From positions 72,177-136,176 of the forward strand of contig CAWEST010000005.1 in assembly GCA_963811815.1 (NCBI GenBank): a DNA stretch of 64,000 nt, given 5' to 3'. The notes under the pieces are model-generated. The model saw only the letters and a list, made by a program, of their open reading frames with translations. It did no database searches and was not told the origin of the DNA. Of this stretch, positions 214 through 46,137 are shown one piece after another (the stretch's first letter is position 1; each line of letters starts with the position of its first letter). Source of the stretch: an uncultured Acidobacteriota bacterium. GTDB lineage: Bacteria; Acidobacteriota; Terriglobia; Acidiferrales; UBA7541. The position numbers were made by a program, and so were the translations under genes.

Positions 214-3200
214 CTACCGTGGTTCGGGTTGTTGCTGCGGAGCCGGTTGAGGCGGAGTTTGCTGCGGCGGCGCTCCCTGCTCGGGAGGAGCCGGTTGTTG
301 CGGTTGAGACCAAGGCTCGGGAGCTGTAGGAGGCGGTGGCTGGGTTTGGGGCTGAGGCTGTGGCACGCCTGGCACCCGCTCTTGGCGCTCTTGGTGCGTG
401 GGACCCAGCGAGCCCGGACCTTCCGGAGCACCGCGGCCCGCGTAAATTAGATGATCTTTGCGCGGCGCTAGGGCGACCATACGCGGGGTCACCAGAATCA
501 GCACCTCGGTATCTTGTTGTTGTACGTCTTCCGCCGCTCCTAACAACCCCGCGCCAGTTGCGCCTCCAAACGCAGGCGTGCCGTTCAGGCCACGCATATA
601 CTGCGGCGAGCGGAATCCTGCCAAGGCCGCCGTTTGGTCCGTCTTTACGCGCACTGTTTGATGGATCTCTTCGTTCGCCACTACAGGGATGTTGTTGAGA
701 AGTGATCCCGTGAGGCTAGTAATACTGAACTCAAGCTGCAGCGTGACCTCATCGTTTTGATGTATGCGCGGCGTGGCCTTTACCTTGACTCCCACGTCAA
801 TATATTCGGCGTTGGGGAATTGAGTACCGATGGCCGAAGAGCTACCGCTCAGAAATTGCGAAGAATTAAGTATGACCGACACGGTATTCGAGCCGTAGTT
901 GGCGACTGCCAAATCAGGTTGTGAAGTGTCCGTAAATGCAGCGGTGGCCAGTGAAACAGGATTCGTCTCGACGGGGAATTCAAAAAATGGGGTAAAGGTC
1001 CCGTCGCCGAGTCCGATCAGCAGGGATACGGCATTGTCAGTTTGCGCCGTGACGGCCAGGTCGGGAATGCCGTCGATGTTGTAATCGGCGATGGCGATCG
1101 AAGTGGGGCCATTGCCAGCCGGAAAGTTGTTTGTTGCACCAAAGGTGCCATCACCGACACCCAGAAGGATTGAAACGGAGGCGCCGGAAAGCGTGTCCGT
1201 TCCCGGGCCATTATTTGCGACCGCAAGGTCCAGGATGTTGTCGCCGTTGAAGTCGGCTGCCGCCACATAGATCGGCGTTTGCCCGGTCGGATAGCTCAAA
1301 GGCGTATTGAACGTCCCATCCCCATTTCCCAGATAGACGGAGACCGAGTTGTCGGTTTGATTGGTAACCGCCAGATCTAACTTGCCGTCGTTGTTGAAAT
1401 CCGCGACCACAACGCCGGTGGGCCCTTTGCCGGTGGTTAAATTTACAGGGGCCGCGAAAGTTCCGTCTCCGTTGCCCATGAAGACGGAAACCGTGTCGTC
1501 CTGTTGATTCGCAACGAGCAGATCGAATTGTCCGCCCGCAATCAGCGTTGCGGAGACAACGGAGACCGGATGGTTTCCGGTCTTGATAGGAGAACCGGAA
1601 GCGGCCGTGAAGGTGCCGTCGCCGTTACCCAGCAGAATTGTAAGAGTATTGTCAGTTTCGTTGGCTACAGCCAAGCCCACATTCGTGTTGTTCTTAGCGT
1701 TGAAGGTGCCCGTTGCGATGGAAATAGGTCCCTTGCCGGTTGTGGGTTTAAGGGTAGCCGGATTCTGAAAGGTTCCATCGCCATTGCCGAGAAAAATAGA
1801 AAGGTTGTCATCGGTGAAGTTCGAGACGATGAGATCTTGAAAATTATCGCCGTTCAAGTCGGCCGTTGTTACGAAATCCGGGGCATTTCCCGTGGCATAG
1901 TTCGTTACCGGAAAATCAGCAGTGCTCAGGCCCAGTATGCTTGTGCCGCCCGTGGTCGCCCCCGTTCCAAGACTGTTGGAATATTGCGCGAGCGAAACCG
2001 GGAAACGCTCGCCCACGAAGAATGTCGCGGGCTGGTTGTCCTCGGCGCGCAGCAAAATCCGGCGGCCATGGCGCACCAGCGAAAGCATCTCGGAAAAACT
2101 AGCGGCCGCGCCGGGAATGGTGGCCAGAAAAGTTGACGCTCCGCCTCCGAAAGCGACGATTGGCGGAATCAGGCCGCCGACATCCACTTGGCCCGAGGCC
2201 AGCAATGTGGCGAGCTGGGTCGGCGAAAGACCCGCGGTCGCGGCGCTTCCGAATATTTGCGTGAGCACGGTAAGCAGCCCAGGAAGCCCCGATTCCGCCT
2301 CGGTTACGGCGTTTGAGGGAATGGTGTAAACATGGCCACTCTGCGGCGGCAGGATGCCAAGCTGCTCCGCATAATTGCGATCCATTTCAAGGATTTCCAT
2401 TTCCAACACCAGTTCGCCGACCGGTTGATCGAGGTCATCGATTACTCCGCTGGCTACGGCGATCGCTTGGGGAGAGGCGCGCATCGTAAGCGTGCGGCTG
2501 CGGGTGTCCAACTGGCTTCGCGTGATTCCTGCAACTTCCCGGACCAGATGCGAGATTTCCGTCATCTGTTCCGGAGTCTCGGTAGATGAAAACAGGACGG
2601 TGCGCACGATCGAAAGATCGTAATCTTTGCGCTTTTGCGTTGTATCGTCGGCCACGAAAAACAGGTGTTTGGTAAGCGGCCGCCAGAAAGTGTGAGTTTC
2701 TTCGCCCAGGATCCGCGTGACAGTGGCGAAATCCAGGTCATTCGCGTCAATGTGTACCTGCCGCGAGCGTAAGTCCACGTCGAATGCAACGTCCACGCCG
2801 AACTTCCGCGCGATCTCTTCATAAGCGCTTTGCGTGTCGCCTCGCAATCGGAAATTCTGCTTTCCCGGCAAATGCTCGAGGTGCACCTCACGGGGAAGCT
2901 CGGGGCCGGAAAGAACTTGCCTTGCTTGGCGGGGATCCAAAGCGGAGAGTTCAGTCAATCGGTCGCGGATCACCTTGTTGCTGGGATCGAGTTCCCGAGC
3001 CTCGCGCAGTGTATGCAGGGCGGCGGGGATTTCCCCGGAAATTGCGTGCCGCTCCGCCAGATCGACTTTCATCTGAACCACATGGCTCTTGGCTATTTCC
3101 CGGCGCGAAAAATAATCGCTATCGTTAGGCGCGAAGTTAACCGCGTCGGAATAGGCTTCGTAGGCCGCTTCCCAGTCACCCTGCTCTTCTGCGCGGAGGC

Positions 3201-3495
3201 CCTGCTTGTTAGCCTGCTTGGCTTTTTTAAGGTCGGCCTTTACGAGTGGGGATGCGGGAGTACTTGGAGAGTTCGTCCCCGGCGCGGGTGTTGGCTTGCT
3301 GGTTGAATCAGGATTCGTGTCAGATTGCGATTGCTGCGCTGTCGCGGGCTTGGCGCTGTCCGATTGAGACTGAACAACGCCAGGCAGCCTTGCGCCGGCG
3401 GAAGCGGCATGAAAGGCACCCAAGAAAGAAATCGTCAACAGGGCCGGCACGGCGACTAAGATTTTAGGCGATCTTGAACGAAGTGCAGATGGCAT
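214..3495 (-). CDS. Secretin-family outer-membrane protein with N-terminal TPR region, inserted FG-GAP/VCBS repeat propeller and Pro/Gln-rich tail
   Basis: 1093-aa ORF with a signal peptide (KILVAVPALLTISFLGAFHAASAGA) and TPR-like helices. Secretin core motifs are VLEMEILEMDRNYAEQLGI, LLRAEDNQPATFFVGERFPV, YIDVGVKVKATPRI and DTEVLILVTPRMV. Seven D-x-N-x-D...LAVxN / LGNGDGTF repeats lie at aa ~527-878. Confidence 0.85.
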   Translation of the reverse strand: MPSALRSRSPKILVAVPALLTISFLGAFHAASAGARLPGVVQSQSDSAKPATAQQSQSDTNPDSTSKPTPAPGTNSPSTPASPLVKADLKKAKQANKQGLRAEEQGDWEAAYEAYSDAVNFAPNDSDYFSRREIAKSHVVQMKVDLAERHAISGEIPAALHTLREARELDPSNKVIRDRLTELSALDPRQARQVLSGPELPREVHLEHLPGKQNFRLRGDTQSAYEEIARKFGVDVAFDVDLRSRQVHIDANDLDFATVTRILGEETHTFWRPLTKHLFFVADDTTQKRKDYDLSIVRTVLFSSTETPEQMTEISHLVREVAGITRSQLDTRSRTLTMRASPQAIAVASGVIDDLDQPVGELVLEMEILEMDRNYAEQLGILPPQSGHVYTIPSNAVTEAESGLPGLLTVLTQIFGSAATAGLSPTQLATLLASGQVDVGGLIPPIVAFGGGASTFLATIPGAAASFSEMLSLVRHGRRILLRAEDNQPATFFVGERFPVSLAQYSNSLGTGATTGGTSILGLSTADFPVTNYATGNAPDFVTTADLNGDNFQDLIVSNFTDDNLSIFLGNGDGTFQNPATLKPTTGKGPISIATGTFNAKNNTNVGLAVANETDNTLTILLGNGDGTFTAASGSPIKTGNHPVSVVSATLIAGGQFDLLVANQQDDTVSVFMGNGDGTFAAPVNLTTGKGPTGVVVADFNNDGKLDLAVTNQTDNSVSVYLGNGDGTFNTPLSYPTGQTPIYVAAADFNGDNILDLAVANNGPGTDTLSGASVSILLGVGDGTFGATNNFPAGNGPTSIAIADYNIDGIPDLAVTAQTDNAVSLLIGLGDGTFTPFFEFPVETNPVSLATAAFTDTSQPDLAVANYGSNTVSVILNSSQFLSGSSSAIGTQFPNAEYIDVGVKVKATPRIHQNDEVTLQLEFSITSLTGSLLNNIPVVANEEIHQTVRVKTDQTAALAGFRSPQYMRGLNGTPAFGGATGAGLLGAAEDVQQQDTEVLILVTPRMVALAPRKDHLIYAGRGAPEGPGSLGPTHQERQERVPGVPQPQPQTQPPPPTAPEPWSQPQQPAPPEQGAPPQQTPPQPAPQQQPEPR

Positions 3496-3644: not shown

Positions 3645-3669
3645 CTAGTTGACACACGTTTACAACTAG
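3645..3669. promoter_or_regulatory. Inverted repeat (CTAGTTG-N11-CAACTAG) overlapping a TTGACA hexamer just upstream of the iron-permease operon; candidate operator
   Basis: ctagttg at 3645-3651 pairs with caactag at 3663-3669. TTGACA lies at 3649-3654. The ATG of the FTR1 gene is at 3676, with no obvious SD. Confidence 0.3.
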
Positions 3670-3675
3670 AATTCG

Positions 3676-4938
3676 ATGCTATCTGCTCTTCTTGTCGCAC
3701 TTCGTGAAGGCGTCGAAGCCGCGCTCGTCGTCGGTATCGTCCTGGTCTATCTGAATCGTACCGGGCGCCGCGCGCTGACGGGCTACGTCTGGGCCGGCGT
3801 AATTCTGGCCGTCGCCGCCAGTGTTGCTGCGGCATTGCTCCTGCAACGCTGGCATGTAAGCGAAGATGGTTTTGAAGGTTTGCTGATGCTGGCGGCGGGC
3901 GTTCTGGTGGTAACCATGATCGTCTGGATGAACCGCGTGGCGCGGCACCTAAAGAAGCACATCGAGCAAAGGATAGAAACATTTGCGCAGCAATCCACAC
4001 GCGCGGCCGGGTGGGGAATTGGATTCTTCGTATTCCTGATGGTGGTGCGGGAAGGCGCGGAGCTGGTTTTGATCCTGCGTGCCGTGGAACTATCCAGTGC
4101 CGGCGTGCAGGTCTGGATTGGAACCGGGCTTGGCATCGCGATCGCGGTGGCCGTCGGTCTTTTCTTCTTTCAAGGTACCTTGCGAATTCCTCTTCATCGT
4201 TTTTTTGCGGCCACCAGCACGATTCTGCTGGTGGTCGCTTTCCAGCTTTTGCTCACTGGTCTGCACGAACTAAGCGAGGCCATGTGGCTGCCGTCAAGTA
4301 AACGTGAAATGGCCACGATAGGGCCGATTGTGCGTAACGAAGTATTCTTTTTTGTGGTGATTCTGGGAGTTGCGGCGCTGGTGGTGCTGCGCGAATGGTT
4401 CAGCGCGAAAAGCCCGGCGCCTGCGGAAGCAGCCAATTCGGCCGATCGGCGGATGCGCGAGTGGGAATTTCGACGGCAGAAGCGCTGGAGTTTCGCAGCC
4501 GCGATTTTGTGCGTGGCTGTCGTTCTCTCTTTCGCGGCCGAGTATGTATATGCCCGGGCGGTAACGGCGCCGGTGCGTGCCCAGGTGCTTGTGGCGCAAA
4601 ACGGCCAGGTTAACATCCCACTTTCTGAGCTTACAGATTCGAGTTTGCATTTCTACACCGCCGACGTGAACGGGACCGTAATCCGATTTCTGGTCATCCA
4701 CAAACAAAACGGCGACTTCGCCACGGCGCTGGACGCTTGCCAGATCTGCGGCACGGCCGGCTATCGCCAGGAAGGCCAGAACGTGATCTGCAGGAATTGT
4801 GGGGCGGCGATTTACATTCCTTCCATCGGAGAATCCGGCGGCTGCAACCCAATCGCGGTGAAATCCCGAATAGAAGGGGGACAAGTGATTGTGGATGTTT
4901 CGGCGCTCGCCAATGCCGCCTCTACGATTCACCCCTGA
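3676..4938 (+). CDS. FTR1-family iron permease fused to a C-terminal DUF2318-like Cys-rich membrane domain
   Basis: Two REGxE motifs (ALREGVEAALV, VVREGAELVLIL) sit in a multi-TM N-terminal half. An extra TM follows, then CQICGTAGYRQEGQNVICRNCGAAIYIPSIGESGGCNPI. Confidence 0.8.
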   Translation: MLSALLVALREGVEAALVVGIVLVYLNRTGRRALTGYVWAGVILAVAASVAAALLLQRWHVSEDGFEGLLMLAAGVLVVTMIVWMNRVARHLKKHIEQRIETFAQQSTRAAGWGIGFFVFLMVVREGAELVLILRAVELSSAGVQVWIGTGLGIAIAVAVGLFFFQGTLRIPLHRFFAATSTILLVVAFQLLLTGLHELSEAMWLPSSKREMATIGPIVRNEVFFFVVILGVAALVVLREWFSAKSPAPAEAANSADRRMREWEFRRQKRWSFAAAILCVAVVLSFAAEYVYARAVTAPVRAQVLVAQNGQVNIPLSELTDSSLHFYTADVNGTVIRFLVIHKQNGDFATALDACQICGTAGYRQEGQNVICRNCGAAIYIPSIGESGGCNPIAVKSRIEGGQVIVDVSALANAASTIHP

Positions 4939-4941
4939 ACG

Positions 4942-6264
4942 ATGTTTGGCCGGCTGGTAAGAGAATCCTTCGTTCGTAACCCGCGCAGGAAAGTCCTGGT
5001 TGCGGCGGCACTGGTCGTGGGCATGGCCGTGGCGACTTCGACGCTGACTATTGCGCTCGAAGTTGGCGACCGGCTGGCACGCGAATTTCGCAGCCTGGGC
5101 GCAAATCTGTTGGTCACGCCGCAAGCGGATACGCTGCCGATCGAAATTGGCGGCGTCGATTATCGGCCGGTGAACGAAGGCGCTTACCTCGACGAAACCG
5201 ACCTCGGAAAACTGAAAACAATTTTCTGGCGCCACAATATTCTGGGATTCACGCCGTTCCTTGACGTTCCTGCGACGATTCAGCAATCTGAGGGCTCTAA
5301 GCCGACACTGGCCATGATTGTGGGGACGTGGTACGCGCAGGATGTGTCCGTCCCCGACGGCACGAAATTCAAAACTGGCTTGAGCGTCACGCATCCCTGG
5401 TGGAAAGTTCAGGGCCGCTGGTTTCACGATGACGCAAATGAATGTGTCATCGGCTCGACGCTGGCCGCGACCATGCCGGGTGTGAGCGCTGGAGAGGTTA
5501 TTTACGTAACCAGCCGGTCGCCTGGTGACTTAATGCAAGGGCAATCCGGCGCAGCACAAGCGGTTGCTCTCAAGGTAGTGGGAATCGTCTCGACGGATGA
5601 CGCGGAGGACAGGGCGTTGCTCGTGCCTCTCGCGATCGCGCAGAAATTATCGGGACATCCGGGGCAGTTCCGCCAGCTTTTTGTAAGCGCGCTGACGAAA
5701 CCGGCGGACACGTTCTCCGAACGCGATCCGCTGAAAATGACGCCGACGGAATACGATCGCTGGTTCTGCTCGCCGTACATTTCTTCGATCAGCTTCCAAA
5801 TTAAAACGGTGTTGCCTGGTACCGACGTGCGCACCATTCGGCGTGTTGCAGATACGGAAGGGCGAATCCTTTCGCGCGTAGGCACTCTGCTGTGGATTGT
5901 TACGCTTGCGGCGCTGGGCGCTGCAGCCTTGGCGGTTGCCGCTACGTCGGCTACCACCGTTCTTGAGCGGCGCGCAGAAATCGGTGTCATGAAAGCTCTC
6001 GGAGCAAGCAATTCCCTGATTGCCGGAATATTCCTCGCCGAACAGTTACTGCTCGCAGTTGCGGGAGGGGCTATCGGGTTTGTAGTAGGCGCGGCACTGG
6101 CGCGGAGCCTGGGCGCGAGCGTGTTTGGCACGGCCGCTTCGCCGCGGCTGATTTTGTTTCCGGTGGTCCTTGGCATCGCGGCAATCGTGGCGTTCGTGGG
6201 CAGTCTGATTCCTTTGCGGCGCGCGTCGCACTTCAATCCCGCGCCGATTCTGCGGGGCGAGTAA
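4942..6264 (+). CDS. ABC transporter permease, FtsX/MacB type (large periplasmic domain)
   Basis: N-terminal TM, ~250-aa extracytoplasmic region and a C-terminal FtsX-like 3-TM block (ERRAEIGVMKALGASNSLIAGIFLAEQ...). It starts 4 nt after the upstream stop. Confidence 0.85.
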   Translation: MFGRLVRESFVRNPRRKVLVAAALVVGMAVATSTLTIALEVGDRLAREFRSLGANLLVTPQADTLPIEIGGVDYRPVNEGAYLDETDLGKLKTIFWRHNILGFTPFLDVPATIQQSEGSKPTLAMIVGTWYAQDVSVPDGTKFKTGLSVTHPWWKVQGRWFHDDANECVIGSTLAATMPGVSAGEVIYVTSRSPGDLMQGQSGAAQAVALKVVGIVSTDDAEDRALLVPLAIAQKLSGHPGQFRQLFVSALTKPADTFSERDPLKMTPTEYDRWFCSPYISSISFQIKTVLPGTDVRTIRRVADTEGRILSRVGTLLWIVTLAALGAAALAVAATSATTVLERRAEIGVMKALGASNSLIAGIFLAEQLLLAVAGGAIGFVVGAALARSLGASVFGTAASPRLILFPVVLGIAAIVAFVGSLIPLRRASHFNPAPILRGE

Positions 6265-7400
6265 TGTTCTGGCGCTTGCTCTGGAAACTCTTGCGTGGCA
6301 GCAGCGGGCGGCTGGTGGTGGCGATTCTAGCTCTGGTAAGCGGCGCCATGGTGATCTCTGCTCTGCTGAATCTCGAATTCGACATCGAAGGCAAGCTTAC
6401 GCAAGAATTTCGCATGCTGGGTGCAAATCTGGTGATTTCGCCCGGTCGTGATGCACAAATCAACGGAGCAGCCCCCGCTGCGCTTATGAATGAGAGCGCG
6501 GTGTTCGCCGCAATTCAGAACTTGAGAGACCCAGGTGTTGTGGCTGCGGTGCCTTTTCTCTACATTGTCGAGCGCGCCGGCGATACGCCCGTAGTGGTTG
6601 CCGGAACGAAGATGGAAGCTCTGCCGAAGCTTGAGCCGGCGTGGAGGATCGAGGGCCAGTGGACTTCGTCCGGCGATAATCAGATACCTTGCATCGTTGG
6701 GCGCAACGCCGCGCGGCAACTTCATCTCGCTCTGGGCAGCACGCTCCATTTGTCTTACTTGGGTAAGACTACGCAGCTTACGCTTGTCGGAACCGTGGAT
6801 ACGGGCGGCGCGGAAGACAATCAAGTCTTCGTGGAATTGGCTGAAGTTCAAAGACTCGCGGGGCTTCCGGGGCGGATCGGCCTGGCGCAAGTGAGCGTGA
6901 GGGGAACCGCCCGGAACATCTCGGAATACGCGGCGCGGCTGGCGACTGCGCTGCCGTCGTACGAAGTGCGGCCCATTCGCCAGGTTACTGAAGCCGAGGG
7001 TGACCTTTTGAATCGCATTCGGCTGCTGATCGGGTCCATGGTGGTTCTGATTCTGGCACTGACGGCACTTTGCGTCCTTGCGACGATGGCGGCCCTGGCG
7101 ATGGAGAGGCGGCAGGACGTGGGGCTGATGAAGGCGCTGGGCGGATCGATTGCGCGGATAGTTACATTATTTATGGCCGAAGTGGGCGTTCTCGGCGCTG
7201 TGGGGGGATTTGTCGGCGCCATTCTGGGCATTGAACTTTCGCGCTGGATGGGCCAGCGCGTTTTTGGCACGGCAATTTCGCTGCGCTGGGAAATCTTTCC
7301 GCTGACCATCGCTCTTATGGTTGCGGTCGCGCTCGCCGGAGCGCTTCCTTTGCGCCTGCTCGGAAAAGTGAAACCGGCGCTAATTTTTCGAGGGGAATAG
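6264..7400 (+). CDS. ABC transporter permease, FtsX/MacB type (paralog of the previous gene)
   Basis: Same architecture (ERRQDVGLMKALGGSIARIVTLFMAEV...). TAATG stop/start overlap with the upstream gene. Confidence 0.85.
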   Translation: MFWRLLWKLLRGSSGRLVVAILALVSGAMVISALLNLEFDIEGKLTQEFRMLGANLVISPGRDAQINGAAPAALMNESAVFAAIQNLRDPGVVAAVPFLYIVERAGDTPVVVAGTKMEALPKLEPAWRIEGQWTSSGDNQIPCIVGRNAARQLHLALGSTLHLSYLGKTTQLTLVGTVDTGGAEDNQVFVELAEVQRLAGLPGRIGLAQVSVRGTARNISEYAARLATALPSYEVRPIRQVTEAEGDLLNRIRLLIGSMVVLILALTALCVLATMAALAMERRQDVGLMKALGGSIARIVTLFMAEVGVLGAVGGFVGAILGIELSRWMGQRVFGTAISLRWEIFPLTIALMVAVALAGALPLRLLGKVKPALIFRGE

Positions 7401-8077
7401 TGGCGACTCTGGTGCAAGTCGAGAATTTGCGCAAGGAATTCGGAAACGTTTGCGCGCTTGCGGGCGTGTCGTTCCGCGTGGAAGCCGGAGAATGGATTGC
7501 CATCATGGGGCCATCGGGCTCCGGAAAAACCACATTGATTAATATTTTGGGCGGGCTCGATATGCCCACTTCGGGGCAAGCCATTGTGGATGCTGTTGAC
7601 GTTGGCCGGCTCGACGAATCCGGACTCACCCGTTTCAGGGCGCAGAAGATTGGCTTCATTTTTCAACAATTTCACTTGGTCCCCTATCTGACCGCGATTG
7701 AAAACGTAATGCTGGCGCAATATTTTCACAGCACCACCGATGAGAAAGAGGCGCGCGAAGCGCTCGAACGCGTAGGCTTGGGCGATCGCATCGAGCATCT
7801 GCCCGGAAAGCTTTCCGGCGGCGAACAACAACGTGTAGCTGTCGCCCGGGCGCTGATCAATCATCCGAAACTCATACTCGCCGACGAACCTACGGGAAAT
7901 CTGGATGAAGCCAATGAAGAGACCGTGCTCCGGCTCTTCCACGATCTGCACCGCGATGGACACACCATTCTTATGGTCACGCACGCGCCTTCCATCGGAG
8001 GACTGGCTGATCGCCGCATCGAATTTGCGCATGGAAGGCTGGTGGAAGTCCCGGCGTCGTTAAAAACCGCTCCCTAA
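7400..8077 (+). CDS. ABC transporter ATP-binding protein (MacB/LolD-like)
   Basis: Walker [10 protein letters not shown], signature [15 protein letters not shown], Walker [13 protein letters not shown]. The GTG start overlaps the upstream TAG. Confidence 0.92.
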
Positions 8078-29766: not shown

Positions 29767-30762
29767 TCAGCCTTTACGAAATGATTTGGCGGCGGTGACA
29801 CAAGAGCGCAGCTTTTCGACGGCTTCTTCTACCGTGCGCGTTTTTAGGCCGCAGTCCGGGTCCACCCATACGCGCTCTTTCGGGAGAATGGTCAGAGCCT
29901 GCTCGACTCTTTCGCGCACGGCGCCAGCGCTGTCGCTCGTATGCGAGTGCACGTCCACCACTCCGAAACTGATGTCTTTCGTAAACGGATGGCGGCGGAA
30001 AAGTTCGAGCAGGTCGAGGTCGCTATTGGACATTTCCAGATCGAAATTATCTACGGCCAGATCAAGCATGCCGGGATAAATATGTTCGAACTCGCCATAG
30101 CAAGCGTGGGTGATGAAGTAGGCGTCCTGGCCCTGGGTGGTGAATTCCATGGCTTCGATGGCTATGGGCAATTCTTCGGGGCGCACGGAAAGCGCAGGCT
30201 CGTCGATTTGGATGATTTTGCAGCCCGCAGCGATTAACGTTTCCACTTCCTGGCGAATCACTTTCGCCAGTGCAAAGGCGGCGGCGCGGCGGTCAGGGTA
30301 AAACTCGTTGAAGCTCCAGTCCATGATGGTGTAGGCGCCGGTAAGCATGCCCTTGACCGGCTTCTTGGTGAGGCTTTGAGCGTATTTCCACCAGTCAACC
30401 GTCACCGGGCCGCGCCATCCAACTTCGCCAGTAATTACCGGCTTGTGATAGTAGCGATTCCCATAGCTGCGAACCAAACCGCTGGTTGCAAATCCCGGCA
30501 GCCGCTCGGCGAAGTAAGCGACCATGTCCCCGCGGTACATTTCGCCGTCCACGAGCACGTCCAGTCCGAGTTTTTCCTGCTGCTCGATCCAGAAAGCGGT
30601 GGCCTTGCGCTCCAGATCGTGAAGATCTTTTTCCGGAATTTGGCCCTTTGTGAATTCTGAGCGAGCCTTAACCAGATAATCGGGCTTAGGGAAGCTGCCG
30701 ACCGAAGTGGTCGGGAAGAGCGGCAACTTCAAGCCGAGCTTTTCCAATTTTTCACGGCTCAT
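29767..30762 (-). CDS. Cobalamin-independent methionine-synthase catalytic (MetE C-terminal-like) domain protein
   Basis: 331 aa. Zn-site pattern THACYGEF ... LEMSNSD ... VDPDCGLKTR. Also TTSVGSFPKP and IIQIDEPAL. Confidence 0.85.
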   Translation of the reverse strand: MSREKLEKLGLKLPLFPTTSVGSFPKPDYLVKARSEFTKGQIPEKDLHDLERKATAFWIEQQEKLGLDVLVDGEMYRGDMVAYFAERLPGFATSGLVRSYGNRYYHKPVITGEVGWRGPVTVDWWKYAQSLTKKPVKGMLTGAYTIMDWSFNEFYPDRRAAAFALAKVIRQEVETLIAAGCKIIQIDEPALSVRPEELPIAIEAMEFTTQGQDAYFITHACYGEFEHIYPGMLDLAVDNFDLEMSNSDLDLLELFRRHPFTKDISFGVVDVHSHTSDSAGAVRERVEQALTILPKERVWVDPDCGLKTRTVEEAVEKLRSCVTAAKSFRKG

Positions 30763-31832
30763 GGGCGGCCGCCTTTTAGCTCGGAGCGAACTTTTGAGAG
30801 TAATTCAAGCTTGGCGAAGGCGCGATCGCGCGGAAGATATTCGAGACCGGATGAAGTTCCAAGAAAAGCGCGTTCGCCTTTTATTTTTGGCAGCATGCGT
30901 TCAATCTGGCGCGCGATTTGCGCGGGATCTTCCAGCCGCGTGTTGCGGCCGTCCACAAGTCCGAGTCCGAGCGCTTTCGGAGAGCCTCTTGCGGCAATCA
31001 TATCCACGAGTTTTGGGTAGTAAGTAAAATCCAGACCGACGATGTCCACCGGCAGCGAGACCAGCTTTTCGTAAAATGGCGCGCAATCGTGGAAGTAAAC
31101 GTAGAGAGCCAGCTCGAGTTTGCGTCCGCTCTTCGTAAAAGTGTCGCGCGCTTTAACGAGCGGGGGGAGCGAAGCCTCGAAAATCGCCCAGTCATTCGGG
31201 TACTTGATCGCGGCGGGCTCGTCGACCTGAATTAACTCGGCGCCCAATTGCGCTAGCGTCTCGATCTCGGTAGCAAGAATTTCGGAGTAGGCCTGGGCGC
31301 GGTCTTCGAGAGCGGCGAACCGCCCCGACGAGCCATTTCCGTGCTGTTCGCCAAGCGAAAATTTTGCGAGGGTATACGGGCCAGTCAGCACAGGCTTAAC
31401 GCTGAGCTTTCCCGCTTTCCCCGAAGGAGTTGGCAAATGGCCAAGGGCGTTTCGCGCGAAGCTGTAATCACCGGCGGCAAGATGTCCGCGTTTGAGCGGC
31501 GTTCCGGTGAAGATGGGCTGGCGAAAATAGGTGTTGGTGTCGAAGAAGCGAACGAGCCCTTTGATTTGGATGTTATCGAGTTTGCCGGCCAGGTGAGAGA
31601 TGGGATCGTACCAGCGAATCAGCCCGTCGGTGACGACGTCAAGGCCGGCCCTCACTTGTTCGGCGATGACGAAGCGGGTCACGTCGTTCTGAACGTCGAG
31701 AAGATCGGCGGTGGAGCGGTCACCACGGTCGAGCGCGGCAATGGTTCGCCGCAGGAGCTGCAATTCCGGGGGATCGCCGATGCGCGGATAGCTTCCCGTG
31801 CTGGAAAGGAAGAGGCCCGGAGTGGCGCTCAT
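30759..31832 (-). CDS. MetE N-terminal-like (Meth_synt_1-type) domain protein lacking the Zn site
   Basis: 357 aa. STGSYPRIG, VVTDGLIRWYDP, LIQVDEPAA and VDGRNTRLE, with no His/Cys Zn ligands. ATGA overlap with the downstream catalytic-domain gene. Confidence 0.75.
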   Translation of the reverse strand: MSATPGLFLSSTGSYPRIGDPPELQLLRRTIAALDRGDRSTADLLDVQNDVTRFVIAEQVRAGLDVVTDGLIRWYDPISHLAGKLDNIQIKGLVRFFDTNTYFRQPIFTGTPLKRGHLAAGDYSFARNALGHLPTPSGKAGKLSVKPVLTGPYTLAKFSLGEQHGNGSSGRFAALEDRAQAYSEILATEIETLAQLGAELIQVDEPAAIKYPNDWAIFEASLPPLVKARDTFTKSGRKLELALYVYFHDCAPFYEKLVSLPVDIVGLDFTYYPKLVDMIAARGSPKALGLGLVDGRNTRLEDPAQIARQIERMLPKIKGERAFLGTSSGLEYLPRDRAFAKLELLSKVRSELKGGRP

Positions 31833-33946: not shown

Positions 33947-35470
33947 CTATGGCGCGATTTCTCTTGGATAGACGCTAATGGCGGTAGGGTCAATCTCGAA
34001 GCGCAGGAGCCAGTCGCTTGGCACGTTACGGCCGTCGATTTTCGCGGGGGCAAATTTCCAAAGTTGCGCGGCTTTCAGGGTGCGGTCGGCGAAATACGTG
34101 CTGGGGCCCGGGGAATCGAACGACGCTTCCGTTACGTCGCCTGATTCGTTTACGTGAACTTTGACGCTGACTCGAACCTTTCCGTGAATCGTGTCTCTGG
34201 CTTTCTGCGGCGCGTCGGGCAGGATTTGCTGAAGTACTTTGCCACGGACGATGCCGCTGGCGGATGTTGTGGCGGGCGCAGCGGATTGAACTGGGATTGG
34301 TGATGGAGCAGGATTGCCCGCAGCCGGTTTTTTCTCTCGTGGGAGAACTGGCCGCGGTGCAGTCTGCTGCGCGGGCTTCGCAGCGGGCGAAGCCGATTTG
34401 GCGGACAGCACTGGTTTGTTTTCTGATTTTGGCTGAACTTTTGCAGGAACCGAGGACTGAACTCTTGACTGCACCGGCGGCTGAGCTTGCGCCGGAACTT
34501 TTGGCTGCGGCGCCGACGGCTGGACTGCGACCGGAGCGGGGGGTGGACTTTGAGAGTGGCGGGCGGAAGATCGCGAGCGTGCGATGATCGCTACGAGCAG
34601 AAGGACAGCCAGCACCACCGCGGCGATGGTGCGCGGGTTTACAAGCGAAGTTTCCGGACCCGGAGTGATCTGCCTCGGCTGCGCGGGCGAATTCTGCTGT
34701 AGGCGCGCGGCGATGTCCGCAACGGTCCAGCGCAATTGCGGGTCACGGCGCAAACAGTGGCGCGCCAAATCGAGAACCTCCGGCGGGAGGTTTGACGGCA
34801 GCGCCGGCTCGGCTTGATTCGTTCTCTCCCACACGGGCAAGCGCTGAGTCAAAGCTTCGGCCAAGGTCATGCCCAGCGACCAAACGTCGCCCGCGGGAGA
34901 AATTCTTCCTCCGGCTGCTTCGGGAGGATCGTAGGCGCCGGGTTTTCCCAAGCTGCCACTGTATTCGCCGATGCGGCAAAGTCCGTCGCTCGAAATTTTC
35001 AGGAGGTCGTCATCGGCCATGATGTTGGCGGGTTTCAAGCGGCAATGAACGAAGCCCTTGGAGTGAACGTAGGCGAGGGCGTCGGCCACGGGGCCGAGAA
35101 TGTCGCGTGCTTCCGCAGGAGAGAGCGGCCTGCGCGCAACTACTTGCGAGAGGTTTTCTTCGGCGTATTCCATGACCACGTAGAGCATCGGCGTGTGATC
35201 CAACTCGCAGCGGCCCGTTTGCAGGAGGCGGATCAAGTGGGGATGAGAAAGTCTTGCGGCTTGTTTCCAGCGGGCGAGTTGGGCCGGGGCATCAACTGAA
35301 TCGGCCGGGATCAGCTTGATTGCGGCTTTGGGGACTTCCTGCCCGTCGTAATCAACCAGAAATACGGAGCTGCGTTCATTTCCGCCGACGAATTGGCCAA
35401 GGCGGAATTTCCCGTCAACGACTTGGCCCATCTGTTTTGTCGCGGCCTCGGTCATGTAATCCCCCTGCAT
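33947..35470 (-). CDS. Ser/Thr-kinase-like (predicted pseudokinase) / TM / Pro-rich spacer / TonB C-terminal domain fusion protein
   Basis: The kinase fold has AAIKLI, HCRLKPAN (HRD Asp replaced by Arg), KISSDG (DFG degenerate), PPE and DVWSLG. TM is IAAVVLAVLLLVAIIA, followed by a ~100-aa P/Q/A-rich spacer. TonB_C-like end: IHGKVRVSVKVHVNESGDVTEASF...AAQLWKFAPA. Alternative ATG at 35455. Confidence 0.8.
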   Translation of the reverse strand: MQGDYMTEAATKQMGQVVDGKFRLGQFVGGNERSSVFLVDYDGQEVPKAAIKLIPADSVDAPAQLARWKQAARLSHPHLIRLLQTGRCELDHTPMLYVVMEYAEENLSQVVARRPLSPAEARDILGPVADALAYVHSKGFVHCRLKPANIMADDDLLKISSDGLCRIGEYSGSLGKPGAYDPPEAAGGRISPAGDVWSLGMTLAEALTQRLPVWERTNQAEPALPSNLPPEVLDLARHCLRRDPQLRWTVADIAARLQQNSPAQPRQITPGPETSLVNPRTIAAVVLAVLLLVAIIARSRSSARHSQSPPPAPVAVQPSAPQPKVPAQAQPPVQSRVQSSVPAKVQPKSENKPVLSAKSASPAAKPAQQTAPRPVLPREKKPAAGNPAPSPIPVQSAAPATTSASGIVRGKVLQQILPDAPQKARDTIHGKVRVSVKVHVNESGDVTEASFDSPGPSTYFADRTLKAAQLWKFAPAKIDGRNVPSDWLLRFEIDPTAISVYPREIAP

Positions 35471-37523: not shown

Positions 37524-39548
37524 CTAGCGAGAAGAATCTGTGAACCGGAGGGACTGCATGGTATGGACGAGTTCATCGAGCTTTGACACATCGGTGCTTG
37601 AGAAAACGAAGAGAAGCAAATAGTCTTTCTCCATCGTGACGGCCTCGACCACGTGGCTAGTCGCGCCCTTGATCGTGGGATTCAAGTTTAACTTCCAAAA
37701 GGTTTTTCCAGCAACAGTGAATTGCTCCGGCGGGCCGACAACTGAGATCGCCATACCCCTGTTTGTCAAAATCGCGGCCATTGATTTCAAAAAGTCTTCG
37801 CCCGATTTCAAATCAGGTTCGAGTACTCGCTTGTCCATAGCTTGGATGAGAATCGAACTCACATTGGTTGATATGTCCTTCGTCGTCTGCCTGGTGACAA
37901 ACAAGAGTTGGTACGCATTTCTAGCAGCTGCTTCTGCTATGTCCGGCATTGTGGGATCGCCGTTCGCCAATATTGATGAGCCAAGTCTAGCTGCCGCTTC
38001 GCCTGCGCCAGCCTTCAAAACAATCCAGTTCTTGGGAAACTCGTAGGAGAAGCCGAAAAAGGTGTTTGTATAGATGTTGTCAGAAAAGAAGCCGTCGTCC
38101 GGCTGCGGTCCGACGGGTTTCGTGGCTGCGTTCGCGGTTTCTTTTGAACCGGCGGGATCAACAACTACGGAATACAGCGGGTTACTCGGCTCGATGCGCG
38201 CGGCCTCCCGGAATTCAGCAAGAGCCTCGTCTCGTTTGCCCTTGTCCCGCAAAGCTACGCCCAAAAAGTAGTGAGCTTGGGCGTCATTTGGACTCGTCTT
38301 CAAGAACAGATTCAGTTCCTCAATGGCCGCATCGGAATCGCCCGCGTGAACGAGTGAAAGGCCAAGAAGCTTGTGGATCATTGGTAGTTCCGGCGCGAGG
38401 GGGATCGCCTCTTCCAGAACAGGGATGGCGTCTTTGAATTGCCCACTTCGCGCCAGGCTGATGCCAAGTTCGGCAAGCGCGAGCTTATGACTTGGAAAGA
38501 TTCGCAGCGCTTCGCGAGCCTCAAGCGTGGCTTCACTGTCGCGCTTCTGAAGACTCAACGCCATTGCCACTGTGACATGCGCTTCTGCGTCTTCGGGCCA
38601 GAGTTTCAGAGACTCTCGGGCCTGAGCCTCGGCTCCGGGGTAGTTCCGGACAAGAAGAAGATTCCTTGCATATGCAAGATGAAGTGTTGCTGAATCGGGC
38701 GCAAGTTGGAGCGCACGCACAAAATTCTCGTTGGCCGATGCGGGTTGTTTGTTGCGTTTGTCAGTAAGCGCTGCGTCGAGGAGTCCATAGGCCTTGACCC
38801 GGTCAGGCGACGGTTGCTTAACAGCCAGAGGCTTGAGAGTAGTGAGCGCCTCAACGAGATTGGGAGGCGCCTCATACAATCGAAGTGAAGCGAGAAAAGC
38901 GGAGTCAGGAGTGAAATCGATGCCGCGCTGGCAGATCGGTTGGGCTTCGTATAGGGTGCGATTTTGACCTGCGAGAAAAGCAAGCAGTTCGAGACGGTCA
39001 AACGGGGGCGCCAGAGGCGTGCCAGCCTCGGCGGCGCTGCAGTCGGTCAGTGGTGGCAGCGGTGGCTGCGGTGGCTGGAGGTTATAATAGAAGGTGCAAC
39101 GTAGTCTAATGGAGGGCCCCTTAAAGGCCGCTGGAAGTGGGGCCTGCGGGTAAAAGTAACGGATAGCATTCATGGCTGCTTGATCGAGTGAATCGTTCCC
39201 AGAGCTTGTCTCGAGAAAGACGCGAGCAATGCTGCCATCCTGGTTGATATCGAATTGAATAACGGCCTGACCCTTTTCCCCTTTATAGAACGCTTCCGGC
39301 AGCGAGGCAGACCAGTTCCTCATCACCCGAGCGTGTAACAGATTCATGTAAGGACCGAAATTTACTCCCTCAGTTGGAGTTAGGATTTGCATCCCACTTG
39401 GGGGAGAACCCAAAGGATGAACGGTGACGCTCGGCGTAGTGCCCTGAACGGGTTCCTGAGCGCGGCTCACTGACTGAATTAGGAACATCGCGAGGGCCAC
39501 GATCACGAACGTTTTGAAAGCGAATCCGGGCCGACGCGGTTGTCTCAT
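37524..39548 (-). CDS. Secreted TonB-C-terminal-like domain / TPR repeat / C-terminal unknown (possibly PsbP/DcrB-like) domain protein
   Basis: Signal peptide, then TonB_C-like GQAVIQFDINQDGSIARVFLETSSGNDSLDQAAMNAI. Multiple TPR units span aa ~250-470. The final ~200 aa (FGFSYEFPKNWIV...) are not recognised. Confidence 0.75.
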   Translation of the reverse strand: MRQPRRPGFAFKTFVIVALAMFLIQSVSRAQEPVQGTTPSVTVHPLGSPPSGMQILTPTEGVNFGPYMNLLHARVMRNWSASLPEAFYKGEKGQAVIQFDINQDGSIARVFLETSSGNDSLDQAAMNAIRYFYPQAPLPAAFKGPSIRLRCTFYYNLQPPQPPLPPLTDCSAAEAGTPLAPPFDRLELLAFLAGQNRTLYEAQPICQRGIDFTPDSAFLASLRLYEAPPNLVEALTTLKPLAVKQPSPDRVKAYGLLDAALTDKRNKQPASANENFVRALQLAPDSATLHLAYARNLLLVRNYPGAEAQARESLKLWPEDAEAHVTVAMALSLQKRDSEATLEAREALRIFPSHKLALAELGISLARSGQFKDAIPVLEEAIPLAPELPMIHKLLGLSLVHAGDSDAAIEELNLFLKTSPNDAQAHYFLGVALRDKGKRDEALAEFREAARIEPSNPLYSVVVDPAGSKETANAATKPVGPQPDDGFFSDNIYTNTFFGFSYEFPKNWIVLKAGAGEAAARLGSSILANGDPTMPDIAEAAARNAYQLLFVTRQTTKDISTNVSSILIQAMDKRVLEPDLKSGEDFLKSMAAILTNRGMAISVVGPPEQFTVAGKTFWKLNLNPTIKGATSHVVEAVTMEKDYLLLFVFSSTDVSKLDELVHTMQSLRFTDSSR

Positions 39549-45500: not shown

Positions 45501-46137
45501 TGCCCTGGCCGGCGAGCATGGTTCCCATAGGCTCGATGGTCACGGAAACCATCAGCGGAATCGGCTGGCCGAGTTCGTGGCTTAGTTGCTGAATGGCGAG
45601 GACGCCAGCCTTGATGTTGCGAGTGTCCTGGCAAGTCTCCAGGAGAAGAAGGTCTGCGCCACCTTCGATGAGGCCGCGCGCCTGATCGTGATAATTATTT
45701 TGAAGCTGTTCGAAATTGATGCCGCCGGTGACGCTGATGGCCTTGGTAGTGGGACCCATAGAGCCCGCCACAAAACGCGGTTTTGCAGGCGTGGAGAATT
45801 CGTCAGCTGCCTGGCGCGCCAGTTCGGCGGCGATGCGGCTGATTTCGCGAGCGCGAGCACCGAGGCCATATTCCGCCAGCACCACCGGGGTGCTGCCAAA
45901 GGAGTCTGTTTCGATGATGTCCGAGCCGGCCTCGAGATATTTCCGGTGGATGGAGAGGACAACCTCGGGCTTGCTGACGACGAGGTACTCATTGCAACCT
46001 TCGAGCTGCGGTCCGCCAAAATCCGCCGCAGTGAGATTCGCCTGCTGCAGCATGGTGCCCATCGCGCCATCCAGGATCAGGATGCGTTCGCGCAATAACT
46101 CCCGGAGGGCCAGGCCCTGTTGAATGAAGTTCCTCAT
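42532..46137 (-). CDS. metH: Cobalamin-dependent methionine synthase
   Basis: 1201 aa with Hcy-binding, pterin-binding, B12-binding (GDVHDIGKN) and AdoMet-activation domains in canonical order. Confidence 0.95.
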   Translation of the reverse strand: MRNFIQQGLALRELLRERILILDGAMGTMLQQANLTAADFGGPQLEGCNEYLVVSKPEVVLSIHRKYLEAGSDIIETDSFGSTPVVLAEYGLGARAREISRIAAELARQAADEFSTPAKPRFVAGSMGPTTKAISVTGGINFEQLQNNYHDQARGLIEGGADLLLLETCQDTRNIKAGVLAIQQLSHELGQPIPLMVSVTIEPMGTMLAGQGIEALWSSLDHVDLISLGLNCATGPEFMTDHVRTLHSLTSGFVSCYPNAGLPNEEGLYQETPTSLAQQLERFVDRGWLNIVGGCCGTTEKHIRAIAQMVQNKSPRRPPDSAHRAVYSGIEMIEAEESTRPLVVGERTNVIGSRQFKNLVAAELWEEATEIARRQVKSGAHIVDVCLQSTDRDEINDIPPFYDQLIRKIKAPIMIDTTDPRAVELALTYCQGKSIINSINLEDGEEKFERICPLARSYGAAIIVGCIDEDPVQAQAFTRERKLEIAERSYRLLTERFAIHAENIIFDPLVFPCGTGDKNYIGGALETIEGVRLIKKQIPHVRTVLGISNVSFGLPPGAREVVNSVFLYHCTKAGLDLAIVNAERIERFGSIPEPERKLAEDLLFNTPPASVPEGHPQAQHLRNAPAGWRQQTPEQKAAINQFHIAAITDHFRASGSRKKERAADLPLDQRLANYILEGSKDGLVDDLNRKRAEGNAPLDIINGPLMTGMAEVGRLFNNNELIVAEVLQSAEAMKAAVSHLEQFMEKADTEKRAKVMLATVKGDVHDIGKNLVEIILKNNGYEVINLGIKVPPEELIRAHREHNPDAIGLSGLLVKSAQQMVITAADLREAGIDVPLLVGGAALSEKFTRLKIAPQYSTAVCYAKDAMTGLRLMNHLSDPAQRQAVLQDNTHAGTIAVEEAAPLPLGPAGEERSPRIRTGIPIPPVAYLDRKARSIPDRNEIWSYINPFMIFGRHMGFRGNFEKALKERDPRALELFHSMEEVKREAESFMKISAVWQFFEAEREGNSIALFEPGKVSPIHKFHFQRQRLADNLCLSDYILPAEPAVAGQNGAEKKNVRRDHLALFVVTAGAGVRERAEEAKADGRYLFSHGLQALAIETAEACAEWLHRRIREDWGFPDPPALTMAERFTSRYRGKRYSFGYPACPNLDDQAGIWMLLRPEEIGVHLTEGMMMDPEASVSALVFHHPDCTYFSVGDQPDPQ

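Follow-up and report, generated by a model that had tools for sequence, protein, structure and literature searches.

A secretin of Candidatus Acidiferrales with a seven-blade FG-GAP propeller at the tip of Gate 1

In the secretin pIV, two conserved hinge glycines delimit Gate 1, which points to the centre of the pore and seals it. Gate 1 opens upward and outward. Secretins are built of 12–15 subunits; the inner barrel of pIV is 90 Å wide and 96 Å tall, and the lumen at the lip of RcpA measures 62 Å. In Vibrio-type GspD, a cap gate is added that narrows the extracellular mouth of the channel. The C-terminal half of PilY1 is a seven-blade Ca-binding propeller that rests on the gate of the secretin, inside the outer-membrane cavity, and turns its adhesive face outward; one copy of PilY1 is enough to fill the cavity of PilQ above the gate.

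The secretin described here shares with GspD/PulD, PilQ, InvG/SctC, f1 pIV, RcpA and BfpB the Secretin domain, a putative N3-like domain, eight barrel strands (predicted by AF2 as long strands), the lip region, the hinge glycines of Gate 1 and the Gate 2 turn, but departs from these canonical secretins in a Gate 1 of ~400 aa against their ~11–30 aa, an N-terminal TPR module and the lack of partner machine genes nearby. Like Vibrio-type GspD it bears an added structure, which here would narrow the extracellular mouth, although the Vibrio cap is a short lip extension rather than a folded domain of 350 aa, and makes no contact with Gate 1. PilY1, in turn, is a separate protein delivered on the pilus tip, one per machine, whereas here the propeller is a covalent part of every subunit. 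A literature search on secretins with propellers, orphan secretins and secretins of Acidobacteria returned no description of this layout, and the curated NCBIfam families score far below cut-off, in line with the preliminary description, which knew of no characterised secretin built in this way.

The gene occupies positions 214–3495 of the window, i.e. the whole 64-kb stretch of DNA analysed, on the minus strand, and encodes 1093 aa in an intact frame. Signal peptide, Ser/Thr/Pro linker, TPR module and two N-domains are followed by a secretin domain that is split by the propeller (Table 1).

Table 1. Features of the propeller-bearing secretin, with residue numbers and window coordinates
Feature	Residues (aa)	Window position (nt)	Strand	Basis
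Putative Sec signal peptide	1-33	3397..3495	(-)	Sequence: basic n-region, hydrophobic core, AASA/G
Low-complexity Ser/Thr/Pro/Gln linker	34-85	3241..3396	(-)	Sequence; pLDDT < 50
TPR module, ~3 repeats	86-190	2926..3240	(-)	AF2 helices aa 89-184, pLDDT ~90
Periplasmic N-domain 1	205-290	2626..2883	(-)	AF2 beta-alpha-beta-beta-alpha-type fold, pLDDT 77-90
N3-like domain	293-358	2422..2619	(-)	Weak Secretin_N match, fold, PilQ/GspD alignments
Secretin domain part 1	359-494	2014..2421	(-)	AF2 strands; GspD, PilQ and 8jvb alignment
Gate 1 N-arm and linker	495-528	1912..2013	(-)	Conserved arm ERFPVSLAQYSNS, then ~20-aa flexible linker
Seven-blade FG-GAP/VCBS beta-propeller	529-880	856..1911	(-)	Pfam, blade HMM, AF2, Foldseek
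Linker and Gate 1 C-arm	881-902	790..855	(-)	~10 flexible residues, then conserved GTQFPNAEYIDVG to hinge Gly902
Secretin domain part 2	903-1008	472..789	(-)	Pfam Secretin, AF2 strands, PDB alignments, invariant residues
Post-barrel motif PRKDHxIYAGRGxxEGPG	1009-1035	391..471	(-)	S-domain position; conservation 0.74
Pro/Gln-rich disordered tail	1036-1093	217..390	(-)	Sequence; pLDDT < 50

The Pfam Secretin profile (PF00263) reaches 71.6 bits against a cut-off of 27.5, but covers only positions 42–168 of 169, at aa 886–1007, and such coverage starting at position 42 is the signature of a split domain. When aa 504–885 were excised in silico, the match grew to profile positions 18–168 and 79.9 bits, and the GspD model aligned over positions 303–590 of 600 as a single stretch, spanning the N3-like domain through the secretin domain. 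The excised construct matches 17 solved secretins at E ≤ 0.01, and the alignments shown, to the A. caldus secretin 8jvb and three GspD, cross the excision junction unbroken; the title of entry 8jvb names a type II secretion system protein from Acidithiobacillus caldus, and a literature search found no paper describing this structure. In Foldseek, the AF2 model of P0165, a natural ortholog without the insert, matches every solved secretin class (E 1e-16 to 1e-10), and the full-length model of the protein itself returned propellers only and no barrels. By profile comparison, the regions flanking the propeller are two halves of one secretin domain. The preliminary description had proposed this split from the motifs LLRAEDNQPATFFVGERFPV (aa 481–500) and YIDVGVKVKATPRI (aa 898–911), which lie where it had placed them, and the Pfam check, in which excision restores a continuous Secretin and GspD match, bears it out. 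Its signal peptide, Ser/Thr/Pro linker and TPR-like helices were likewise recovered (sequence and AF2, with the TPR weak in Pfam), as was the Pro/Gln-rich tail after the LILVTPRMV end.

Within the inner barrel, it is the tip of the Gate 1 hairpin that carries the propeller, flanked by the hinge glycines G495 and G902. In the alignment, the counterpart of G495 in V. cholerae GspD is G453 (5wq8; 5wq9 is the G453A entry of that protein), the C-arm at G902 aligns with the xVG of GspD and RcpA, and the N-arm with the Gate 1 arm of propeller-less orthologs. Among 53 family sequences, G495, P499, L502, S506 and S508 are invariant, and so are F893, P894, D900 and G902. The excision junction maps to approximately residue 245 of RcpA, within the disordered Gate 1 tip (242–255) of that secretin, and the AF2 confidence falls to pLDDT < 50 at aa 499–519 and 884–897. 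The distance from blade 7 to G902 is 22–25 aa throughout the family. Between the hinge glycines there are ~400 residues here, compared with ~11–40 in other secretins.

The inserted domain is recognised by Pfam as FG-GAP_3 (E=2e-42, 6 stretches) and FG-GAP, with PF13517 at 144 bits and PF01839 at 56 bits, both above cut-off. Self-alignment and a blade HMM define seven blades at aa 539–884, AF2 gives pLDDT > 90 across aa 525–880, and the best Foldseek matches are seven-blade propellers (EPTP of LGI1, TM 0.82). An N-terminal strand (530–534) probably closes blade 7 in the manner of a velcro, so that both chain ends would exit on the same side. The motif GxGDGTF is present in six of the seven blades. 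The seven FG-GAP repeats first described are thus supported by the blade HMM and AF2, but not the Ca-binding loop that had been ascribed to each of them: the full D-x-N-x-D-x-x-x-D loop is found in four (blades 1, 4, 5 and 6), and its residues in blades 5 and 6 are invariant or nearly so in the family. The free-standing propellers closest to this one belong to proteins with a signal peptide and an Ig-like tail; one of these proteins also has RTX repeats. In three relatives (P0157, P0146 and P0124), Ig-like domains (Big_2, He_PIG and others) are nested between the blades. Integrin alpha subunits carry an inserted alpha-I domain in an inter-blade loop of their FG-GAP propeller. They resemble the secretin propeller in having seven blades with Ca-loops in some of them, and the three relatives in nesting a binding-type domain, but integrins are a different host protein from another kingdom, and the domains nested here are Ig-like, not vWA. 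Both the nested Ig-like domains and the Ig-tailed free-standing propellers were counted as support for a surface-type module.

The remaining parts of the protein are those of a secretin with an additional TPR module. The region of the signal peptide is disordered in the AF2 model, and the N-terminus is conserved among orthologs. Inspection of the sequence revealed no Cys near the signal peptide and hence no lipobox; the secretin is therefore predicted not to be a lipoprotein, and a lipid-anchored, self-piloting liposecretin was ruled out. The Ser/Thr/Pro/Gln linker shows the lowest conservation in the family alignment (0.30). TPR matches in Pfam are slightly below cut-off here but above it in P0165 (TPR_2, 35.5 bits); the TPR part alone aligns to the N-terminal TPR of the Amuc_1098 and TraC models, and TPR proteins are among the Foldseek matches of the P0165 model, together with the N-terminal (N0-N2) domains of XcpQ and the N-terminal domain of GspD. 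Secretin_N is matched weakly at aa 328–359 (15.4 bits, 17.4 at most after excision, cut-off 28.2), and in the relatives P0140 and P0146 at 26–28 bits against the same cut-off; the N3-like stretch aligns with the part of PilQ and GspD that precedes the secretin domain. Part 1 of the secretin domain comprises a first barrel strand (361–372), a lip/amphipathic-helix region (~380–470) and two strands (474–484 and 490–499) that run to the hinge Gly495, with a family conservation of 0.87 at aa 471–499. Part 2 consists of four long strands (916–933, 936–951, 956–971 and 988–1007) and ends in LILVTPRMV. A Gate 2 turn, whose position was deduced from the order of elements in pIV, would lie near aa 930–940, where N934 and P937 are invariant. 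In the post-barrel motif, Y1018, A1019 and G1020 are invariant and D1014, H1015, G1022, G1026 and G1031 nearly so, and the Pro/Gln-rich tail shows low conservation (0.44) and is missing from many insert-bearing relatives.

The propeller-secretin is carried by ~52 species-level genomes, nearly all labelled Acidobacteriota and mostly Ca. Acidiferrales. Each of the best 120 protein clusters listed has FG-GAP domains, and nearly all of these clusters also have a Secretin domain. Purifying selection acts on every domain (dN/dS well < 1; propeller 0.05–0.17), and the variability of the propeller does not exceed that of the barrel. The insert-bearing sequences form one clade, with the insert-less P0165 as sister at the same FTR1/truB locus. 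The propeller was inserted once into a normal secretin and has been kept under purifying selection since; three lineages further elaborated it with nested Ig-like domains. Uncharacterised stand-alone TPR-secretins are widespread in Terriglobia, and the gene encodes their Ca. Acidiferrales form. The insert-less form of this secretin is represented by 3061 protein clusters and consists of proteins of ~600–650 aa, annotated as 'hypothetical' or 'GspD', that share the architecture of TPR module, two N-domains and secretin domain, are likewise without machine genes and have an ordinary Gate 1 of ~28–55 aa. Identity is 25–51% with the N-terminal half as query and 24–42% over the whole protein. Gate 1 expansions of medium size (gaps of 70–97 aa in P0245, P0253, P0256 and others) were dismissed as partial-match artefacts, with Gate 1 normal in these proteins. 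The named insert-less relatives among the best 120 are from Terriglobales, Acidobacteriia or Korobacteraceae and not from Acidiferrales, which fits orthology better than paralogy without being conclusive; a hetero-oligomer with an insert-less paralog was judged less likely on the same grounds.

We hypothesize, with a probability of roughly 40%, that the single propeller insertion at Gate 1 is presented as a ligand-binding crown or cap at the outer mouth of the channel. Export would be by Sec; if, as is assumed from homology, the protein forms the usual double-walled outer-membrane barrel of 12–15 subunits, the TPR and N-domains would hang into the periplasm. Given that 12–15 propellers cannot fit into a width of 62–90 Å and a height of < 100 Å, they would not be housed in the lumen. 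Since, in addition, only ~10 flexible residues would separate blade 7 from the conserved gate arm and Gate 1 would swing only up and out, the hairpins are probably held upright in an open-like state, presenting the propellers as a crown. Such a crown may bind ligands multivalently and in a Ca-dependent manner, as a lectin, adhesin or receptor, and, together with Gate 2, may effectively cap a pore that has no normal plug. However, ~14 hydrophilic domains of ~38 kDa each would have to cross the outer membrane during insertion of the secretin, the propeller, in contrast to many exposed adhesins, varies no more than the barrel, and a pore without the Gate 1 seal should leak unless the crown truly closes it.

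A possible, though doubtful, alternative to the crown is that the protein serves as the functional secretin for a type IV pilus, T2SS or Tad machine whose genes lie elsewhere in the genome; the propellers would then act as a PilY1-like cork in cis that is pushed aside on passage of fibre or cargo. The protein retains its barrel, its hinge glycines and Gate 2, the propeller of PilY1 corks PilQ from above, and secretins encoded apart from their machines are known. Against this, the cavity takes one cork, not 12–15, and the scores are 4–20 times below the cut-off of each curated secretin family. The T2SS GspD model (TIGR02517, cut-off 351) gives 66.8 bits, 77.3 after excision and 67–83 in insert-less orthologs, and no gsp genes were found; PilQ (TIGR02515, cut-off 284) gives 39–62 bits, with no pil genes in the window or related loci; SctC, MshL and HofQ (cut-offs 238, 250 and 554–598 bits) all remain at ≤ 50 bits. 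For the Tad secretins RcpA/CpaC, RcpA (8odn) was matched at E=2e-4 by the excised construct and at 0.45 by the gate segment, and no tad genes are near. The Amuc_1098 family (NF042912, cut-off 750) is matched at 28.5 bits in the TPR part only (model 36–138 of 805). The PilY1/PilC family is absent from the Pfam matches of the secretin, whose fused propeller is of the FG-GAP type. Genes for a pilus, T2SS, T3SS or Tad system are absent from the 64-kb window and from the ±10 kb around the gene in ~50 relatives, and no machine genes lie next to the insert-less relatives examined. The term orphan, used in the preliminary description, holds within this scope.

It is less probable that the protein is a self-displaying surface organelle, whose barrel would export and then carry its own 12–15 Ca-folding propellers on permanently everted Gate 1 hairpins, with an extracellular, lectin-like crown replacing the gate. 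If true, a macromolecular ligand would be captured at the mouth of the channel without an inner-membrane machine, and the secretin would be a counterpart of autotransporter display. We consider unlikely a non-conducting scaffold, in which the propellers jam the channel for good and the ring is a stable outer-membrane anchor, for example in envelope architecture or for tethering via the TPR module and the Pro-rich tail. A gate tip so bulky can neither close nor open in the normal way, and partner genes are absent for the whole TPR-secretin family, but both hinge glycines, the arms of the gate and the residues of Gate 2 are invariant, which would be unexpected were gating obsolete, and the lumen is too small for the propellers here too.

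The neighbours of the gene are those initially reported, the 3' end of truB (nt 1–159, +) and a divergent FTR1 operon. The secretin could be regarded as the outer-membrane part of the neighbouring iron uptake (FTR1-FtrD fusion and MacB/FtsX-type ABC transporter), with the crown capturing an iron-bearing ligand. Of 50 loci, 48 keep the divergent FTR1 arrangement, even where secretin identity is as low as 37%, the shared intergenic region contains a conserved palindrome, and in relatives the ATPase of the operon is fused to an iron-repressor C-domain. However, the whole block is syntenic, including truB-rbfA-infB and an amino-acid permease, so the linkage to FTR1 is not specific; the propeller-less P0165 holds the same position, the secretin occurs without the FTR1 operon in L028, L037 and P0133, and more distant TPR-secretins lie in unrelated housekeeping contexts. 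Because of the synteny, the propeller-less orthologs and these exceptions, the link was downgraded, and we give this role little credence. A mis-assembly, gene-fusion call or decaying pseudogene, suggested by nothing but the oddity of the layout, is refuted by the recurrence of the architecture in hundreds of independent assemblies and ~52 species, the intact frame, dN/dS well < 1 in all regions and the conserved linker lengths.

No functional element of secretins is more conserved than Gate 1, where mutations that make the pore leaky or affect its gating are located, and which has been assumed to be a short flexible plug. A Gate 1 that bears a propeller cannot, we infer, work as a normal gate. 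No studied secretin has been described with this layout, which is conserved in an entire bacterial order: these peat and soil Acidobacteriota keep a folded domain of 350 to ~650 aa at Gate 1. It further emerges that machine-less TPR-secretins form a very large family in Terriglobia, in which the propeller-less orthologs at the same locus and the variants with nested Ig-like domains are natural constructs to compare in work on structure and gating. The secretin scaffold can accommodate a gate of a radically different kind and make use of it, which implies an unexplored way of closing or using giant secretin pores.

The secretin gene is a single open reading frame encoding a protein of 1093 aa, in which the secretin motifs quoted in the preliminary description were located at the residues assigned to them. 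A Pfam search of this protein returned FG-GAP_3 in six stretches (E=2e-42) together with FG-GAP, and self-alignment combined with a blade HMM delimited exactly seven blades at aa 539-884. In an AlphaFold2 model built from the 53-sequence family alignment, the pLDDT was above 90 for aa 525-880, and the top Foldseek matches were seven-blade propellers (LGI1 EPTP, TM 0.82), in agreement with the seven FG-GAP repeats claimed beforehand. The Ca-binding-like motif attributed to every repeat was found in part, since the complete D-x-N-x-D-x-x-x-D loop is restricted to blades 1, 4, 5 and 6 and GxGDGTF to blades 1-6. Pfam Secretin matched aa 886-1007 with 71.6 bits (cut-off 27.5), covering only profile positions 42-168 of 169 and leaving the initial quarter of the model unmatched. 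Upon in silico excision of aa 504-885, the match extended to profile positions 18-168 (79.9 bits), and the NCBIfam GspD model aligned in one stretch (positions 303-590 of 600). The excised construct also gave 17 matches to solved secretins at E <= 0.01, including GspD of several species, PilQ, RcpA and the Acidithiobacillus caldus secretin 8jvb, and the displayed alignments with 8jvb and three GspD proteins were unbroken over the junction. Given this continuous alignment with the Pfam profile, the GspD model and solved secretins, the residues flanking the propeller are one secretin domain interrupted by an insert, as had been proposed.

Sequence alignment places FFVG(495)ERFPV opposite IVG(453)EEVPV of Vibrio cholerae GspD, whose G453A mutant is PDB 5wq9, and the excision junction at approximately residue 245 of RcpA. 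RcpA residues 242-255 form the disordered tip of Gate 1, the hairpin plugging the pore, and 11-15 residues of this tip are unmodelled in T2SS secretins (PMC10499894). Gate 1 of pIV, bounded by two conserved hinge glycines, reaches the pore centre, presumably sealing it, and swings up and out when the channel opens (PMC8563730). Both hinge glycines of the gate, G495 and G902, are invariant in the 53 family members, as are the hairpin-arm residues P499, L502, S506, S508, F893, P894 and D900. The chain runs from the first gate arm through a linker of ~20 aa (pLDDT below 50) into the propeller and returns through a linker of ~10 aa to the second gate arm. A turn resembling Gate 2, in which N934 and P937 are invariant, comes next; family-wide, 41-49 residues separate G495 from blade 1, and 22-25 separate blade 7 from G902.

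The protein belongs to the secretin superfamily, as its Pfam score exceeds the cut-off and both its fold and its hinge glycines conform. It lies outside every curated functional family scored, as all scores remained below the respective cut-offs: GspD (67-83 bits, cut-off 351), PilQ (39-62, cut-off 284), SctC (up to 47, cut-off 238), MshL (up to 50, cut-off 250), HofQ (up to 35, cut-off 554-598) and, for the TPR part only, Amuc_1098 (28-42, cut-off 750). The AlphaFold2 model of the insert-less relative P0165 matched PilQ, BfpB, PulD/GspD, InvG, pIV and RcpA (E 1e-16 to 1e-10), and none of these classes stood out. A literature search yielded no secretin with a folded Gate 1 domain and none with FG-GAP repeats, consistent with the initial remark that no characterised secretin was known to have this layout. 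Reported elaborations are of the lip (the cap gate of the Vibrio type), of the N-domains or of the S-domain (PMC10499894).

Three family members have enlarged inserts. Three unnamed Ig-like repeats (P0124) or two He_PIG domains plus a PKD-like signal (P0146) separate blades 1-3 from blades 4-7, and in P0157 three Big_2 domains stand between blade 1 and the other blades. These proteins are doubly nested, with Ig-like domains in an inter-blade loop and the propeller itself in the gate loop, and they represent three lineages in different subclades, in which the Ig-like domains were gained independently. The closest free-standing propeller relatives (35-46% identity) are signal-peptide proteins with about two propellers and C-terminal Ig-like domains, one of them additionally with RTX repeats; judged by its domains, this composition resembles that of secreted or surface proteins. 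The insert appears to evolve in the manner of a binding module.

By homology, the protein would assemble as a 12-15-mer double barrel. A propeller of 350 aa is ~50 Å across and ~30 Å thick. The inner barrel of pIV is 90 Å wide and measures 96 Å from the outer face to N3, with a gate aperture of 40 Å (PMC8563730), while RcpA measures 62 Å at the lip and its Gate 2 tips are 31 Å apart with Gate 1 disordered (PMC10499894). In Pseudomonas aeruginosa, one copy of the pilus-tip protein PilY1 (vWA domain plus seven-blade propeller) is enough to fill the cavity that PilQ has above its gate (PMC11525922). From these dimensions we infer that the lumen would have room for one to three propellers, not for 12-15. 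Since Gate 1 swings upward and the tether on the C side has only ~10 residues, the propellers of all subunits could together reach no position other than the outer rim of the mouth, the hairpins standing upright as they do when the channel is open. On these grounds we tentatively propose, with a probability of about 0.4, that the Ca-binding propellers form a crown at the extracellular mouth, where they would bind multivalently and, together with Gate 2, provide a substitute cap. Such an exposed binding role would fit the nested Ig-like domains and the secreted-type propeller relatives. Weak points of the crown are the path of the propellers to the cell exterior, which might lead through the lumen of the protein itself or involve Ca2+-assisted folding outside, and the absence of hypervariability in the propeller.

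As an alternative, which we consider rather unlikely, the propeller would be a PilY1-like cork acting in cis on a secretin whose machine is encoded at another locus; among the ~40 larger ORFs of the 64-kb window, no pilus, T2SS, T3SS or Tad components were found, as had been noted for the flanks. That the protein is a jammed, non-conducting scaffold seems more doubtful still.

That the protein serves the FTR1 iron system as its outer-membrane partner is a further, very unlikely reading. At 48 of 50 related loci the secretin gene lies between a divergent operon (FTR1-FtrD fusion, two MacB/FtsX permeases, ABC ATPase) and a convergent truB-rbfA-DUF503-infB-nusA-rimP block, bearing out the neighbours described initially. 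However, the synteny covers the entire block on both sides, the two exceptions (L028 and L037) have unrelated housekeeping neighbours, and the gene of the insert-less P0133 adjoins GBBH-like_N and Pyr_redox_2 genes without an FTR1 operon. More distant TPR-secretins occupy another housekeeping context (GH3-AnmK-SBP-YmdB-HAD upstream, DsbA-NadE downstream). The iron link is therefore not specific, and the secretin family is an orphan in terms of local context.

The iron-uptake operon of the window has the same components and lacks a P19/FtrA-type periplasmic protein. Its ATPase has only 225 aa without Fe_dep_repr_C; in many relatives it has 358-366 aa and is fused to this iron-dependent-repressor C-terminal domain. 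An inverted repeat (consensus yAGTTGnAA-N5-TTnCAACTr) occurs at the same place upstream of FTR1-FtrD in most of 49 related loci, including those with secretins only 41-44% identical, and changes in one half are mirrored in the other (CTAG../..CTAG versus CCAG../..CTGG). The repeat could act as a palindromic operator or, at the RNA level, form a hairpin that covers the ribosome-binding site. In many loci, another conserved block, AAATCAAGCAAATTCA, is located ~60 nt closer to the secretin.

Coordinates of the secretin gene and of further features in the window and at related loci
Feature	Sequence	Position	Strand
Secretin gene	window	214-3495	-
7-bp inverted repeat CTAGTTG-N11-CAACTAG, immediately 5' of the FTR1-FtrD start codon (3676)	window	3645-3669	+
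Iron-uptake operon	window	3676-8077	+
Iron-uptake operon	L001	4728-5804	
Iron-uptake operon	L085	602-1702	
Methionine synthases: cobalamin-independent enzyme (a pair of adjacent ORFs of 331 and 357 aa that overlap, both showing Meth_synt_1 and Meth_synt_2 signals) and full-length B12-dependent MetH	window	29767-31832; 42532-46137	-; -
Cluster of unusual signalling/envelope proteins: Ser/Thr kinase with C-terminal TonB_C; TonB-C/TPR protein; Ser/Thr kinase with PD40 (WD40-like propeller) repeats	window	33947-35470; 37524-39548; 39769-42471	-; -; +
P0133, propeller-less TPR-secretin	L084	2060-3925	

In a search of 5.8 billion proteins, FG-GAP was present in all of the best 120 clusters and the Secretin domain in nearly all of them, and full-length copies (37-95% identity) were found in ~52 GTDB species genomes. 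Pairwise comparison with five orthologs gave dN/dS values of 0.05-0.17 in the propeller and 0.02-0.17 in the barrel; only the tail and the first linker, where the ratio reached 0.34, exceeded these. The propeller-bearing secretin is a real gene family under selection, and an artefact is refuted by the shared layout, the number of genomes and the propeller dN/dS. Almost every carrier bears an Acidobacteriota label, in most cases Ca. Acidiferrales or Acidoferrum (class Terriglobia). Contigs L020, L034 and L044 are labelled Polarisedimenticolia, Ca. Cybelea and Limnocylindrales; these labels are probably binning errors, since the FTR1/secretin/truB synteny matches that of Acidiferrales loci.

Relatives were collected from 1.84 billion representatives with the N-domains and first barrel half as query and dissected with phmmer. 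The insert was present in ~35 clusters at 50% identity, and a far larger set consisted of TPR-secretins that are about 600-650 aa long and have a Gate 1 of ordinary size; one of these, used as query, matched 3061 clusters, the names being from Terriglobales, Acidobacteriia and Korobacteraceae. In a rough neighbour-joining tree of the two barrel halves, all insert-bearing sequences fell into a single clade with the insert-less P0165 and P0187 as sister. P0165 (603 aa) occupies the identical locus between the divergent FTR1 operon and convergent truB-rbfA, which makes it a propeller-less ortholog by position; in junction alignments, insert-less orthologs have the same gate arms, with ~40 aa separating the glycines. 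P0133 (621 aa, 51% identity over the N-terminal half), though insert-less, nests within the insert-bearing clade, which, for a single 4-kb contig in a rough tree, may reflect secondary propeller loss or tree error. A folded domain in Gate 1 would surprise a secretin specialist, and the natural insert-less orthologs are controls that make the propeller reading directly testable.
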